A DNA stretch of 39,667 nucleotides from a virus (IMGVR_UViG_2645727555_000028:1-39667); one strand, 5' to 3'; counted from the first letter of the stretch, positions 659 through 5,818 are shown. Notes: generated by a model from the sequence alone, not told the origin. Numbers and translations are program-made.

Positions 659-1354
659 ATGAAAAAGGAAATACTCAAGGCTCTTTGCCCTACATGCGGT
701 GGGTTACGTAACTGCACTGTGCATGGGAAGCTAACCACTAGCTGGGAGGATTCCCAATATCCAGTTTATGGGTACCATTACCATCACCTACTCCAATGCA
801 ATGGCTGTGATACTGTCTTCTATCACCACAACGAACACTTTAGTGAGCATACTACCCACGAATATCGTGATGGTGAATTTGTAGAAACGCCTATAGATAT
901 GATCACTACCTATCCTGCCGCTGAAACATTTCAAGCTCCGATATGGTTATCCAAGCTTGAATCAGTTGATCGTCAGCTCTTTCAAATATTTAATGAAATG
1001 TATTCTTCATATACTTCTGACCATTTCATTCTTTCGTCCATCGGTTTACGGACGATTTTTGATCGAACTGCTGAACTGTTACAAATTCACCCCGGTTTGC
1101 CGCTTGGTGAAAAAGTTGAAAAATTAAAACAAGATGGAGTCATAGGCGACACTGAGGCATGCGTTATATCTTCTGTAATTGATGCAGGAAACGCCGCCGC
1201 ACATCGCAGTTGGAGCCCGAATAAAAGTGAGTTCGAACAAATGCTAGAAGCTATAGAAAGTTTTGTCCAAAGAACTATCTTGGGCAAAAAATCACTTGAA
1301 CATATAACCAAACAACTCCCACCTCGGGTTACAAGACCTAAAAATAGTGCATAA
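659..1354 (+). CDS. cargo protein: N-terminal CxxC...CxxC zinc-ribbon plus C-terminal domain resembling DUF4145 (N-x3-H motif, GNAAAH)
   Basis: 231-aa ORF; Cys pairs at residues 10/13 and 47/50; C-terminal region with IDAGNAAAH; locus visibly AT-richer than the adjacent phage genes; sits in the slot where e14 carries mcrA. Confidence 0.5.
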   Translation: MKKEILKALCPTCGGLRNCTVHGKLTTSWEDSQYPVYGYHYHHLLQCNGCDTVFYHHNEHFSEHTTHEYRDGEFVETPIDMITTYPAAETFQAPIWLSKLESVDRQLFQIFNEMYSSYTSDHFILSSIGLRTIFDRTAELLQIHPGLPLGEKVEKLKQDGVIGDTEACVISSVIDAGNAAAHRSWSPNKSEFEQMLEAIESFVQRTILGKKSLEHITKQLPPRVTRPKNSA

Positions 1355-1380
1355 TCCGCGATCATCAATGTGGCGTAAGG

Positions 1381-1938
1381 TTATGGTTTACTTGCTACAG
1401 GGAATTTTTTATACACCGTTGAAATACCCAGATCATAAATCAGTGCGACTTGCTGCTGATATATTCCCGATTCAATCAACCTGCCAGCCTGCTCCCATTG
1501 TTCTACTGTCAGCTTTGGCTTTCGCCCACCATTCCTCCCTTCTTGTCGTGCTGCGGCAAAGCCCGCCCTAGTACGTTCGACAATAAGCTCTCGCTCCATT
1601 TCAGCCAGGGCACCCATCACATGAAAGAAAAAGCGCCCCATTGGTGTGCTGGTATCAATAGCATCCGTCAGGCTGCGAAAATTAACGCCACGTTCGCGCA
1701 ACTCCTCCACCAGCACGACAAGATGCCGCATACTGCGCCCCAGTCGGTCCAGTTTCCAGACTACCAGAGTGTCACCTGCTGATAATGTTCTGAGCAGTTT
1801 TTTCAGTCCCGGTCGGTCGGACTTAGTGCCGCTGATCTTATCTTCAAAAATCAGCTCACATCCTGCACACTCCAGCGCATTACGCTGCAATTCCGTATTC
1901 TGGTCATTTGTTGATACGCGGACATAGCCAATAAGCAT
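1381..1938 (-). CDS. pin: serine-recombinase DNA invertase (Pin/Gin/Hin family)
   Basis: translation MLIGYVRVSTNDQNT...LVVWKLDRLGRS... is a canonical resolvase/invertase catalytic domain with a C-terminal HTH; start placed at the internal MLIGY Met by comparison with the 184-aa Pin I recall; a gix-like site lies immediately upstream. Confidence 0.9.
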   Translation of the reverse strand: MLIGYVRVSTNDQNTELQRNALECAGCELIFEDKISGTKSDRPGLKKLLRTLSAGDTLVVWKLDRLGRSMRHLVVLVEELRERGVNFRSLTDAIDTSTPMGRFFFHVMGALAEMERELIVERTRAGFAAARQEGRNGGRKPKLTVEQWEQAGRLIESGIYQQQVALIYDLGISTVYKKFPVASKP

Positions 1939-1996
1939 GAGCATTCCCCTGAGTAAAAACCGGGGATGATGCCAGTTAGCCATAATCTCTGCATTT

Positions 1997-2020
1997 TCTT
2001 AAACGTTGGTTTAGGAGAAG
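1997..2020. other. invertase crossover site (gix/hix-like), left
   Basis: ttcttaaacgttggtttaggagaa; its reverse complement ttctcctaaaccaacgtttaagaa closely matches the site at 3879-3904. Confidence 0.7.
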
Positions 2021-2517
2021 GCTCAGCATTGCCTGTTGGCGTACCTGTTCCGTGGCCCTCAGCCACTCCGCCAACAGGCTGGCTAAAATGCAACGGAGCA
2101 GCTTTTTCTGCTGAAGAATACCCGGAACTGGCAAAGGCTTACCCGACAAATAAATTGCCTGATTTACGTGGTGAGTTTATTCGTGGCTGGGATGACGGAC
2201 GTGGTATGGATACGGGGAGGGCAATATTATCAGCTCAGGGCGATGCCATACGTAATATCTATGGTGAGTTCAGAACTGTAAACACTGAAAATTATTCAAT
2301 ATGGGAAACAGTAGGTTCGTTTAAGGGGGCCATAGTGCCATTGAGTCCCTCTACAAACAATAGTTATTTCTCCTTAACCAGAAGTATGGTGACAGAAAGA
2401 GCAGACGGCGCTGTTTACCCAAAAGTGATTGGCCTTGATGCTTCAAGAATTGTTCCAACTGCAAACGAAAACCGTCCTCGTAACATTGCCTTTAATTATA
2501 TCGTGAGGGCTGCCTGA
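2021..2517 (+). CDS. silent alternative tail-fibre C-terminal cassette (Sv'-like), no start of its own in this orientation
   Basis: ORF continuous from the crossover site to the stop at 2517; order matches stfE-tfaE of e14; would fuse to the constant tail-fibre N-terminus after inversion. Confidence 0.6.
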
Positions 2518-3119
2518 TGAATAAAGCGGTATTAAATAACGAACTCATTGCTATAAAAGCGGGAGACATTACCATTTATAATTATGATGGTGAAACGCGG
2601 GAATATATTTCCACATCAACTGAATATCTTGCTGTGGGTGTCGGTATCCCGCCATGTTCCTGTTTAGATGCTCCTGGCTCATATAAAGCTGGTTATGCAA
2701 TCTGCCGTTCTGCAGATTTTAACTCATGGGAATATGTGCCAGACCATCGCGGTGAAGTTGTCTATAACACCGAAACGGGAGAATCAAAAGAAATCACAGC
2801 TCCGGGTGATTACCCTGAAAATACAACCACTATCGTCCCGTTAACGCCATACGATAAATGGGATGGTGAGAAATGGGTGACAGATACTGAGGCACAGCAT
2901 AATGCCGCAGTAGACGCGGCAGAAGCACAGCGCCAGTCACTGATTGATGCAGCAATGGCTTCCATCAGTCTGATTCAGCTGAAATTACAGGCCAGACGTA
3001 AACTGACGCAGGCAGAAACAACCCGACTAAACGCTGTGCTGGATTACACTGACGCGGTGACGGCAACAGATACCAGCACCGCGCCGGACGTCATCTGGCC
3101 TGAACTGCCGGAGGCGTAG
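2517..3119 (+). CDS. tail fibre assembly protein (Tfa), silent-orientation copy
   Basis: 200-aa ORF with Tfa-type C-terminus (..LDYTDAV...APDVIWPELPEA); ATG overlaps the stop of the preceding cassette. Confidence 0.75.
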   Translation: MNKAVLNNELIAIKAGDITIYNYDGETREYISTSTEYLAVGVGIPPCSCLDAPGSYKAGYAICRSADFNSWEYVPDHRGEVVYNTETGESKEITAPGDYPENTTTIVPLTPYDKWDGEKWVTDTEAQHNAAVDAAEAQRQSLIDAAMASISLIQLKLQARRKLTQAETTRLNAVLDYTDAVTATDTSTAPDVIWPELPEA

Positions 3120-3531
3120 GCCATTCAATATCTGGCGCACCGGAAGTATCGACCAGCTCCAGTGCGTCCAGATAATCCAGCCACAAATTATATTGCGCCA
3201 GTTCCTCACCTTTCAGACGACCAATCGCCGCTTTACCAGGCCATTGCTTACTGTTTATGTATTCGTTGACCTGATTAATCAATTGCTGCTTTTCCAGTTC
3301 GGCTGCGGCAATTTGTTCCTCATGAGTTGGCGGTGGAATATCAATCCATGCAGGCATTCCGTCGATGACACCTCTGTATTTTCCTTCTGGTGCTTCCTTC
3401 ATAAATTCGGCGGCAACAGTGTCGTCAATTTCGATTCCATCATCGGGCCATTCGCCGGATTCCTGATAAGCGATTTTAAGCTCCACAGGGAAAAACGCAT
3501 TTTTATCGGCACTGAAAATATATTTCTGCAT
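3091..3531 (-). CDS. tail fibre assembly protein (Tfa), expressed-orientation copy
   Basis: 146-aa ORF with Tfa-type C-terminus (..WLDYLDALELV..APDIEWPTPP), directly downstream of the tail-fibre gene. Confidence 0.75.
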   Translation of the reverse strand: MQKYIFSADKNAFFPVELKIAYQESGEWPDDGIEIDDTVAAEFMKEAPEGKYRGVIDGMPAWIDIPPPTHEEQIAAAELEKQQLINQVNEYINSKQWPGKAAIGRLKGEELAQYNLWLDYLDALELVDTSGAPDIEWPTPPAVQAR

Positions 3532-3533
3532 TT

Positions 3534-4181
3534 CTACCGTCCTATCGAAATATAACTGAATCTGTATTGCTGTGAGATATCACTGGTTGCCACACGCCAC
3601 GCTGAATTACTGATATGTTCAAAATTTACAGACAAAACCTGCGGGGCAGGATTCGACGGGTCTGACTGAACGGCATCAGACATAACACTGACTGAAACCA
3701 TCGGCTGATTAGGGAATGGTATAGGGAAGTGTCCACTGATAAAGCGGGTCGTGTTTCCTGAAAAAGTGCCAAACTGAACAATATATCCACCTGGTAGCCT
3801 GAACCATCCCGAACCAGAAGCGAATGCTCCCATATCCGGTATCTGATTATCTCCTGTGCCCACATCCCTTTTCGCCGCTTCTCCCAAACCAAGGTTTTCG
3901 AGAGCCGTTTTCACCGTGCCATCCGATTTGATATCACCAAACGGATTCTTGCGGCTTAACAGCAGAGCACGAAGCGCGGTAAGCAACTGGTCGTTTCGCC
4001 CCTTCTCCAGGCTGGCACCGGATGCCTCCACCACGCTGCAAAGCTCCTCCTGCAACATATCAAAGTAGTCATCATCCAGATCGGTGGCAGGTGTGCCGGT
4101 CTGGGGGTTACCACGGGTAAAACCGTTCTTACCCGCGCCGAACTTATCCTTCTGCGCGGTTTTCGTGTCTATACGATGCAT
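3534..4181 (-). CDS. tail fibre protein (constant N-terminus 3905-4181 fused to the currently in-frame variable C-terminus)
   Basis: 215-aa ORF spanning the right gix-like site; position after the baseplate genes; e14 stfP-like. Confidence 0.7.
3879..3904. other. invertase crossover site (gix/hix-like), right, inside the tail-fibre gene
   Basis: ttctcccaaaccaaggttttcgagag; inverted repeat of 1997-2020; resembles the gix/hix core (..AAACC..GGTTT..). Confidence 0.7.
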
Positions 4182-4184
4182 GGA

Positions 4185-4769
4185 TTACTCCGGATATTTA
4201 AAAATTACGTAGGTATGCGACGGGCAGAGTTTGTTAAGCACACACTCGACAACGGTGTCACCCCAGATACGCAGTGCGGAATCACAGGGATCGCCACATG
4301 TCATCCAGGTGGAGTTGGTGGTGGCTGGCATGTTGACCTGCCAGTAATACCGCCATTCCGGCGCATTCACCGCGTCAGTACAGGCCGATGAGCAGGTGAA
4401 AGTGCTTTTGTCGTATCGCGTGATGGTGGCATCTGGTCTGCCCAGGGCAGCAAGCTGTGCAAGATAAAAATCCTCGTTGATGCCGCCCGCCAGGTTAACC
4501 TTCGCATCCAGCCGTTGCTGACGCTGGCGAAGGGTCTGCGTTCCCGCCGGAATACATTCATCCGGCAGACCGCACAGACGCTCCCAGCGGTTTATCAGTT
4601 CAGTGGTGGTGCGCGGATCCAGCTCCCGCATCAGGGCATCCGCACGCTGATGAACACGGGTTAATGACGGTGCCGCACCGGCAATCGCCGGATCGCTGGC
4701 TGACCACGCCGGACCGGGCGGCAACAGTGCCGATAACAGGCGGATGTAATCATCGTTTGTCACGTCCAT
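4185..4769 (-). CDS. ymfQ: tail protein, Mu gp48-like (DUF2313), YmfQ-like
   Basis: 194 aa; position between baseplate J and tail fibre; length and order match e14 ymfQ. Confidence 0.65.
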
Positions 4770-5818
4770 GAAATCGTCCCCAGTACCGCCAGTTCGTTTT
4801 TCGCAATGGAGATATTGTCCACCGGTGCAAGCAACTGATGGCTGTATTCCCCGTTCGCACCGGAAATCGCCTCACTGATACGCGATACCTTGAGTTCTCC
4901 CTGCGGATAACCATCACGCAGCAGGAACGAACGCAACTCCGCGGTAATGGCAGCCCGTATTTCTGGTGTGTCCGGCGTCACGCGGATATGAAAATCCACC
5001 GTATGTGCCACCGGCCTGAATACATACAAATCAGAGCCTGCCACCGGGGCCAGTGGCCAGATATGTTGTCTTGCTGCCGTTTCCGTTGATTCTTCCGGAA
5101 TGGGATTAATCAGGTCACTGCTGGCAATCATCACACCGACAGTTCCCGTTCCCATCCAGTGACGGTATGTCCATGCGCGGGTAATGCCGGGCACTTCTTT
5201 AGCCCAGACGACATAGTCCCCGTCAGCCCCGCCCTGAGGCGTCCAGTAATACCGCTCAATGACGCGGGCGCGCCACGTTTCCAGCTCTTCAGTATCAAAT
5301 CCACCTGTCAGGGTATCTGCCACGCCGGAAGACGGCAGACCATTAACCGGCGTGACCAGGATTAATGACGTACCGTCGTCAGCGTTACCGACCGCGCCTG
5401 CACTTGAGCAGGCGATCGGCACGCGCAGGACACTACCGGAGCTGGTTGCATCGGCAGTTGCCGTGTACTGAACCAGGTCATCGCGCTGAATAACACTCCC
5501 GGCGGTCACCTTCAGGCCATCGCTGACACCTTCCCAGCGCATATACCCGCTGGCAGCCGTGGCCCCCTTGCGCGGACACCGTTTCATCGCAGCATGTCGC
5601 GCCAGCCAGGACTCATCGCACAGGTCAGGCAGAATGTTCATTGCCAGATAATCGATGTACCCGTAAACCGTATGCAGCGCCGCCGCATACACCTTTGCCC
5701 GCACGTCTTCATCCATGCGCCGGAGCGTGTCGCTGACGTCCAGCCTGGCGAATAAATCGTTACGGAGCATACTGATATTTTCTGCCAGCGTCGGGCGCTG
5801 AAATTCACTGTCCGCCAT
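4760..5818 (-). CDS. baseplate J-like protein (Mu gp47 family)
   Basis: 352 aa; order within the Mu-type baseplate module. Confidence 0.75.

Follow-up and report, generated by a model that had tools for sequence, protein, structure and literature searches.

A probable tail-fibre inversion switch of the e14 P-segment class in an SfV-like prophage

The window, a stretch of 39,667 nucleotides of viral DNA (IMGVR_UViG_2645727555_000028:1-39667), very probably carries a site-specific tail-fibre inversion switch of the Mu G, P1 C and e14 P type, residing in an SfV-like prophage. All parts of such a switch were found: a gene for a serine DNA invertase (pin), two inverted crossover sites and, between the sites, two opposed fibre cassettes with a chaperone gene each. 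The reading frame of the fibre gene was preserved in either orientation, and both orientations occurred in near-identical elements elsewhere. It has been known since the 1980s that invertases of the Gin/Cin/Pin type flip tail-fibre cassettes. The locus belongs to the e14 P-segment/Mu G-segment class, whose biology is already known, and relatives of it are annotated in RefSeq as pinE and tfaE.

Organisation of the invertible segment

The segment and the fibre gene that runs into it consisted of the following features.

2006-3892, no strand: invertible segment of 1887 bp, measured so as to include the central dinucleotide of each crossover site
3893-4181, minus strand: constant 5' portion of the tail-fibre gene, encoding residues 1-96 and situated outside the segment; 98.3% DNA identity to e14 together with ymfQ
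3534-3892, minus strand: currently expressed variable fibre C-terminus, gp53-like (Pfam Gp53-like_C, 9.6e-09, residues 128-215 of the 215-aa fibre)
3091-3531, minus strand: tail-fibre assembly chaperone gene for the expressed cassette (146 aa; Pfam Caudo_TAP, 1.2e-34; 56% identity to e14 TfaP)
1966-2517, plus strand: silent cassette with a Collar-type fibre C-terminus, homologue of e14 stfE (Pfam Collar PF07484, 9.5e-16)
2517-3119, plus strand: tail-fibre assembly chaperone gene for the Collar cassette, TfaE homologue (200 aa; Pfam Caudo_TAP, 2.7e-30; 90% identity to e14 TfaE)

The fibre gene begins outside the segment with its constant 5' part, has a crossover site within its open reading frame (ORF), and stays in frame in both orientations. 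An earlier note on this DNA, made from the sequence alone, had described two opposed cassettes, each with its own Tfa gene, and a right-hand site inside the expressed fibre ORF. Both descriptions held: Gp53-like_C and Caudo_TAP domains were found on the minus strand and Collar and Caudo_TAP domains on the plus strand, and the right site falls within a 215-aa ORF (3534-4181, minus strand). The note had further supposed that inversion swaps the receptor-binding end. When 2006-3892 was inverted in silico, the frame was kept and the 215-aa gp53-like fibre was turned into a 266-aa Collar fibre, the two sharing residues 1-101 (...ENLGLGE). In Escherichia coli GF66.2, a relative with the segment flipped, an 801-nt gene annotated 'phage tail protein' has the exact size of the predicted 266-aa fibre.

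The silent cassette, whose variable part is 2008-2517 (169 aa), can also be read as an ORF of 183 aa from an ATG at 1966, which is not in the segment. Its identity to e14 StfE is 58%, and the equivalent ORF in E. coli HH107 is annotated 'phage tail protein'. After a flip, this left-junction ORF would have 132 aa and a gp53-like end. Both cassettes and both Tfa genes appear as intact ORFs, a sign that selection has acted on both in the recent past. The 3' ends of the convergent tfa genes share 29 bp (3091-3119), an overlap that is annotated likewise in e14 (tfaP/tfaE), HH107, GF66.2, phage SKA5 and E. coli XH989. The fibre gene is preceded by a Mu gp48-like baseplate gene (YmfQ; Pfam Phage_Mu_Gp48) at 4185-4769, which belongs to the Mu-like baseplate genes directly upstream (gp48/YmfQ, gp47, gp46, gp45, gp44).

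Crossover sites

The segment is bounded by one crossover site on each side.

3879-3904, plus strand: right (distal) crossover site, 26 bp, TTCTCCCAAACCAAGGTTTTCGAGAG = TTCTCCCAAACC AA GGTTTTCGAGAG, within the fibre ORF at codons ...ALENLGLGE
1994-2019, minus strand: left (pin-proximal) crossover site, 26 bp, reverse complement TTCTCCTAAACCAACGTTTAAGAAAA = TTCTCCTAAACC AA CGTTTAAGAAAA

The earlier note had put inverted sites of 24-26 bp at 1997-2020 and 3879-3904. The coordinates of the right site were exact; the left site is best placed at 1994-2019, so that its coordinates had been off by 1-3 nt. The two sites are inverted relative to each other and consist of imperfect 12-bp half-sites on either side of a shared 2-bp core (AA). 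Aligned in inverted orientation, they match at 20 of 26 positions, with the central AA in both. Mismatches to the half-site TTCTCNNAAACC numbered 0 and 2 in the left site and 0 and 1 in the right site. The inner half of both sites encodes GLGE; in the left site this half (2008-2019) supplies the GLGE codons of the silent cassette.

The right site is identical at all 26 positions to the site in stfP of the E. coli K-12 element e14, and the left site is identical to the e14 pin-proximal site at 24 of 26. The 19-nt family core TTCTCCYAAACCAASGTTT occurred exactly twice in the 39.7-kb window (0.00 expected). No third crossover site was found in the window, where the next-best candidates carried 6 mismatches in one half-site. 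A multi-site, shufflon-like system of the Min type was ruled out, as there are just two sites in 39.7 kb. A general repeat finder with a 9-nt seed did not report the two sites, which have at most 7 consecutive nt in common. Taken as a generic repeat, the pair does not stand out, as inverted 26-mers matching at 20/26 positions or better and lying 1-3 kb apart formed 3 clusters in the window and 1-3 in shuffled sequences.

The invertase and its candidate enhancer

The invertase gene and the enhancer proposed within it were placed as follows.

1381-1938, minus strand: pin, 185-aa serine DNA invertase of the Hin/Gin/Cin/Pin subfamily (Pfam Resolvase, 1.8e-51; HTH_7, 2.2e-11)
1854-1916, no strand: candidate recombinational enhancer inside pin codons 8-28, with the Fis-consensus 15-mers TATCAACAAATGACC (1902-1916) and GTGCAGGATGTGAGC (1854-1868)

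The pin gene is not part of the invertible segment, and its transcription runs in the direction away from the segment. The longest ORF begins at 1983, and we placed the start at the ATG at 1938, which is homologous to the PinE and Gin starts (MLIGYVRVST); the same 558-nt pin coding sequence is annotated in GF66.2. With this start, 55 nt separate the gene from the left site, which ends at 1994, in agreement with the earlier statement that the invertase gene adjoins that site. Pin is 84% identical to e14 PinE and 77% identical to Mu Gin. Over residues 1-181 it aligned with the sequence of the Mu Gin crystal structure PDB 3UJ3 (E = 1.1e-91), and also with PDB 4M6F (E = 1e-91). With its length, an N-terminal catalytic domain with a nucleophilic serine and a C-terminal helix-turn-helix, Pin is by its sequence a regular member of the Hin/Gin/Cin/Pin group (~185-190 aa). 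The catalytic residue is Ser9, located in YVRVSTNDQ. As far as can be judged from its sequence, Pin is intact, with the catalytic serine and every invertase-specific residue that was checked.

The checked residues included those associated with Fis. Pin Q150/R153/L154 align with the Q-x-x-R-L motif of Hin (Q151/R154/L155), and the basic residues K46/K47/R50, in GLKKLLR, align with GLKRALK of Gin. For the helix-B residues, the correspondence to the Hin numbering is presumed. In Hin, Q151/R154/L155 contact Fis and the basic helix-B residues 47/48/51 contact enhancer DNA, and these residues have been described as peculiar to the invertases that depend on Fis (PMC3798978). Hin has an enhancer of 65 bp at a distance of ~100 bp from a hix site, and the spacing between its Fis centres is 47 bp (PMC3798978).

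The Fis consensus used here was a degenerate one that permits G or T at position -7. The 15-mers at 1854-1868 and 1902-1916 were the sole pair in pin that matched it at 48-bp spacing; their centres lie 97.5 and 145.5 bp from the centre of the left site. Both were kept in 81 of 83 distinct pin homologues, including Mu gin and e14 pinE. Synonymous-site divergence along pin (72 distinct genes) showed shallow dips of 0.11-0.17 against a mean of 0.21, a weak signal at the candidate enhancer. A first ad-hoc Fis score, in which G was required at position -7, had given ambiguous candidates with centres at 100/150 and 137/184; these were rejected, being unconserved in e14 or Mu. The contact residues in Pin and the geometry of the candidate enhancer point to Fis dependence.

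Taken as a switch, the locus would work as follows. In the present orientation, the minus-strand late tail operon would run from the baseplate genes into constant residues 1-96 of the fibre gene (4181-3893), and expression would continue across the right site into the gp53-like cassette (3892-3534) and then into its chaperone gene (3531-3091). Pin dimers would bind both 26-bp sites, and synapsis would probably take place at a Fis-bound enhancer in the 5' region of pin. The DNA would then be cut in a staggered fashion at the central AA/TT dinucleotide, and rotation by 180 degrees followed by religation would invert 2006-3892. After the flip, the constant part would be fused in frame to the Collar cassette, giving the 266-aa fibre, with the TfaE-like chaperone gene downstream. 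The resulting virion would have a different receptor-binding tip and, going by precedent in the family, presumably a different host range.

Orientation of the segment in related genomes

The same prophage was found next to dusA in E. coli HH107, where it is collinear with the window at 95.3% identity. At the same dusA locus, E. coli GF66.2 carries the prophage with the segment flipped: window positions 1300-2020 and 3878-4800 aligned forward and 2001-3897 in reverse, at 95.9% identity. The breakpoints of this inversion, at 2001-2020 and 3878-3897, thus lie inside the two crossover sites. A second pair of genomes came from the Hangzhou urine isolates XH989 and EC15, whose P2-like prophages are 99.95-99.97% identical save for an inverted segment of 1.89 kb. 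The pieces of their alignment overlap at 3436-3450 and 5308-5325, and the unit of pin plus segment is collinear with window 1400-3903 at 93.6%.

A survey of 5,426 complete E. coli genomes used a 3-kb query, as-is or flipped in silico, of which at least 80% had to be covered in one piece. The query was found as-is in 6 genomes and flipped in 12. A 300-nt probe across the fibre junction matched 19 genomes as-is and 518 when flipped. Both orientations are clearly present, and common, across related genomes, the evidence coming from these and not from within the single window sequence. Sequence similar to pin or the segment was present in ~3,170-3,200 of the 5,426 genomes, with a median of 2 and a maximum of 10-11 places per genome. 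Invertase cross-talk between co-resident prophages, like that reported for PinQ on e14, could be common.

Scanning IMG/VR with Pin gave 80 loci at 85-99% identity. In 75 of these the proximal site begins 80-81 nt before the ATG of pin, and in L046 at -76; in the remaining 4 the upstream sequence is missing or, as in L009, the proximal site has been lost. An inverted distal site 1.5-2.5 kb away was also present in 64 of the 80 loci, and all 64 had the central AA at both sites. Both cassettes were in frame from GLGE and at least 90 aa long in 61 of these two-site loci. Where a Collar cassette was paired with an AAKR-type cassette, Collar was expressed in 26 loci and silent in 11. Two loci, L013 and L079, were atypical in that the outer half of the distal site was of the pin-proximal type (…CGTTTATGAAAA), not of the fibre-gene type (…GGTTTTCGAGAG).

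Relationship to known inversion systems

The earlier note had called the cassette 'G-segment-like'. The label is apt, since the parts match those of Gin/Cin/Pin-type systems; the precise homologue is the P segment of e14 (stfP-tfaP-tfaE-stfE-pinE). Gene order, orientation and the 29-bp tfa overlap are the same in both. YmfQ is 99.5% identical, Pin 84% and TfaE 90%, and the constant fibre part and ymfQ share 98.3% of their DNA. The expressed cassette and its chaperone differ, with no DNA similarity over window 3246-3870; the window fibre is 54% identical to StfP overall, and the 146-aa Tfa is 56% identical to TfaP. The segment measures 1887 bp in the window and ~1.8 kb in e14. Whereas e14 is a defective remnant at icd, the window is a seemingly complete SfV-like prophage with relatives at dusA, and beyond pin it carries DUF4145 and dinI-like genes where e14 has mcrA. 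On these grounds (SfV-like prophage, dusA-linked relatives, DUF4145 and DinI genes, different cassette and chaperone) we rejected the idea that the window is e14 itself.

For e14, inversion is documented by experiment. Coexisting orientations of the P segment were detected in K-12 cultures by whole-genome sequencing and polymerase chain reaction (PCR) (PMC4272514), and inversion of the segment by PinE and PinQ was obtained experimentally (PMC4272514; PMC12529663). Quantitative PCR gave ~30% inverted segments in the wild type and 49% with over-production of PinE, and pinE and pinE pinQ mutants had the segment in a single, locked orientation (PMC12529663).

The annotated Mu G segment shares the topology of the window: a constant 5' part of S, two opposed cassettes [Sv-U / U'-S'v], and an invertase gene outside. 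Pin is 77% identical to Gin, the candidate Fis 15-mers lie at the same positions in gin, and the upstream baseplate genes gp44-48 are Mu-like. Differences are that the G segment is ~3 kb long, that its fibres are far longer (S, 504 aa), that its cassettes are unrelated except for weak Tfa similarity, and that DNA similarity is limited to the invertase gene (72%). With the Hin/H segment of Salmonella, the locus shares the invertase subfamily, the 26-bp site design, the Fis-contact residues and, for the candidate in the window, the geometry of the Fis enhancer. In contrast to the window, Hin flips a promoter and not a coding cassette, and hin and its enhancer are located inside the segment, whereas the window pin is outside.

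The 1.9-kb segment was also found in P2-like modules (Salmonella Peduovirus MET_P1_103_31; XH989/EC15), which carry it at 93.6-96.2% identity, ending at the sites and with an adjacent invertase gene. Window 2003-3897 matched L006 2998-4892, from a P2-like Salmonella phage, at 96.2%, and window 1400-3903 matched L007 2830-5333, including pin, at 93.6%. There, the constant part belongs to a long P2 H-type fibre (ORFs of 394-445 aa), in a P2-type baseplate and tail context. Similarity to the P2-like phages stops exactly at the crossover sites, so the segment behaves as a portable module. That unrelated phages exchange fibre cassettes as modules has long been recognised, and this sharing is a case of it.

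Outside the segment, the window follows the SfV group. Window 4300-29000, including the structural genes, matched SfV, SfI, SfII, SfIV and E. coli phages such as vB_EcoM-689R6 at ~97%. The window is accordingly an SfV-like prophage; its contractile tail is of the Mu-like kind, and it is, seemingly, structurally complete. An isolated phage, SKA5, has the same layout of int, dinI, invertase gene, segment and fibre gene. The structural genes of SfV, SfI, SfII and SfIV are ~97% identical to those of the window, and the SfV fibre has the same constant N-terminus with a site identical at 26 of 26 positions. SfV differs from the window in having one site, a single fixed fibre (orf21, 216 aa) and one chaperone gene (orf22), with no invertase and no second cassette, and in carrying O-antigen gtr genes between the fibre genes and int. 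The orphan 26/26 site in SfV orf21 (L089 3949-3974) lies at the ENLGLGE position of its single fixed fibre.

Evidence bearing on present activity

Several observations weigh against a working switch in this prophage. The single assembled sequence of the window displays one orientation, and activity in this genome is something that we infer. The left site differs from its e14 counterpart by a T at position 7 and an A at position 21. The enhancer assignment leans on the degenerate consensus and on the weak synonymous-site signal, and a promoter and terminator scan of 1300-4300 gave nothing above shuffles. Relatives display decay of the system. The orthologous pin of HH107 (L001 6082-6638) is annotated as frameshifted, and this copy has probably become fixed in the orientation that the window shows. 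In L009 (IMGVR_UViG_2875722834_000002), the segment has been replaced at 3593-4931 by one fixed cassette consisting of a 306-aa fibre and a 176-aa Tfa. Its position is equivalent to window 2006-3892, the boundaries of the replacement lie exactly at both crossover dinucleotides, and Pin is 99% identical; since only the outer half-sites are retained, pin is there without a substrate in cis.

Part of this would be explained if the locus were a remnant with the architecture of a switch, in which flipping has ceased through drift of a site or the enhancer or through insufficient Pin activity, leaving the fibre fixed in its gp53-like form. The one orientation visible in the window, the two substitutions of the left site relative to e14, and the decay in relatives (the frameshifted pin of HH107 and the fixed cassette of L009 beside a 99%-identical pin) are all consistent with it. 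We nevertheless consider a locked locus very unlikely. Pin is full length, with the catalytic serine and all checked invertase-specific residues, both sites have the central AA and good half-sites, and the ORFs of the two cassettes and the two Tfa genes are undamaged. The left-site variants T7 and A21 were moreover both found in other two-site loci, and loci with identical variants belong to both orientation classes.

The inverted repeats might also be no more than the shared GLGE coding of paralogous fibre genes, with inversion occurring by RecA-dependent homologous recombination and not by Pin. It fits this view that the best-conserved part of the sites is the inner half, which encodes GLGE, that the pair does not exceed chance when it is counted simply as an inverted repeat, and that the same site occurs in SfV, which is free of an invertase. 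Yet the two sites agree over no more than 7 consecutive nt, far too little for efficient homologous recombination, and the outer half of the left site, although non-coding for the fibre, is a recognisable half-site (10/12) whose distance from the pin ATG is held at 80-81 nt in 75 of the 80 loci. The central AA was found at both sites in 64 of 64 two-site loci. The homologous e14 segment is locked in pinE and pinE pinQ mutants (PMC12529663). Together, these findings make shared coding an extremely improbable explanation. The repeat statistic itself was rejected as evidence, as inverted 26-mers matching at 20/26 are no rarer in the window than in shuffles. The significance of the site pair rests on the family core, the identity to e14 and the breakpoints in relatives, not on a generic repeat statistic.

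Role of the switch

If Pin-mediated inversion is accepted, the switch could chiefly serve the lysogen and not the virion. The left-junction ORF (183 aa, or 132 aa when flipped) would then be expressed in the lysogen and its product would mask receptors against other phages. An ATG-initiated ORF does span the left site in both orientations, and equivalent left-junction ORFs are annotated in XH989 and EC15. A precedent, e14 StfE2 against T2, was published in 2025 (PMC12529663). We regard this role as unlikely here, because the prophage, unlike e14, appears structurally complete (97% to SfV-type structural genes) and the isolate SKA5 has the same layout, which makes a role in the host range of the virion the more economical explanation. 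Furthermore, the first 14 residues encoded by the junction ORF are poorly conserved relative to e14 (MMPVSHNLCIFLNV vs MPFACYFFIFINV), the promoter scan yielded nothing above chance, and there were no PADLOC matches.

A broader and equally doubtful proposal is that the sites are, in addition, portable docking points at which unrelated phages trade cassettes and through which control is exerted in trans. Pin might then carry out swaps between elements, or else, as reported for e14 StfE2, the flip might turn on a receptor-masking protein that protects the lysogen. It was suggested by the segment that SfV-like and P2-like phages have in common up to the site boundaries, by the orphan site of SfV, by the replacement in L009 and by the conserved left-junction ORF.

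Read as an inversion switch acting on the virion, the locus means that annotation of this SfV-like prophage should list two alternative fibres, one of 215 aa and one of 266 aa. Both orientations need to be taken into account when host ranges are predicted or assemblies compared. For this subgroup, the survey supplies the precise coordinates of the sites, a spacing between site start and pin ATG that is conserved at 80-81 nt, and a candidate position for the enhancer.

Neighbouring genes

A Rfam scan of the whole window returned no matches, and PADLOC gave no matches for Pin, the fibre or the DUF4145 protein encoded beyond pin. In NCBIfam, nothing scored over the curated cut-offs, the DUF4145 protein included. 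At the left end of the window, two CTGT-N8-ACAG palindromes (3-18 and 31-46) lie directly upstream of a dinI-like gene (62-310; Pfam DinI, 1.1e-19). We take these palindromes to represent the LexA/SOS-box consensus, which suggests that the dinI-like gene is an SOS-regulated accessory gene of the prophage. Between dinI and pin, where e14 has mcrA, the plus strand encodes a protein of 231 aa (659-1354) with N-terminal CxxC...CxxC motifs and a DUF4145 domain. The gene was also found in HH107 and GF66.2 and is absent from phage SKA5; its product may be accessory or defence cargo.

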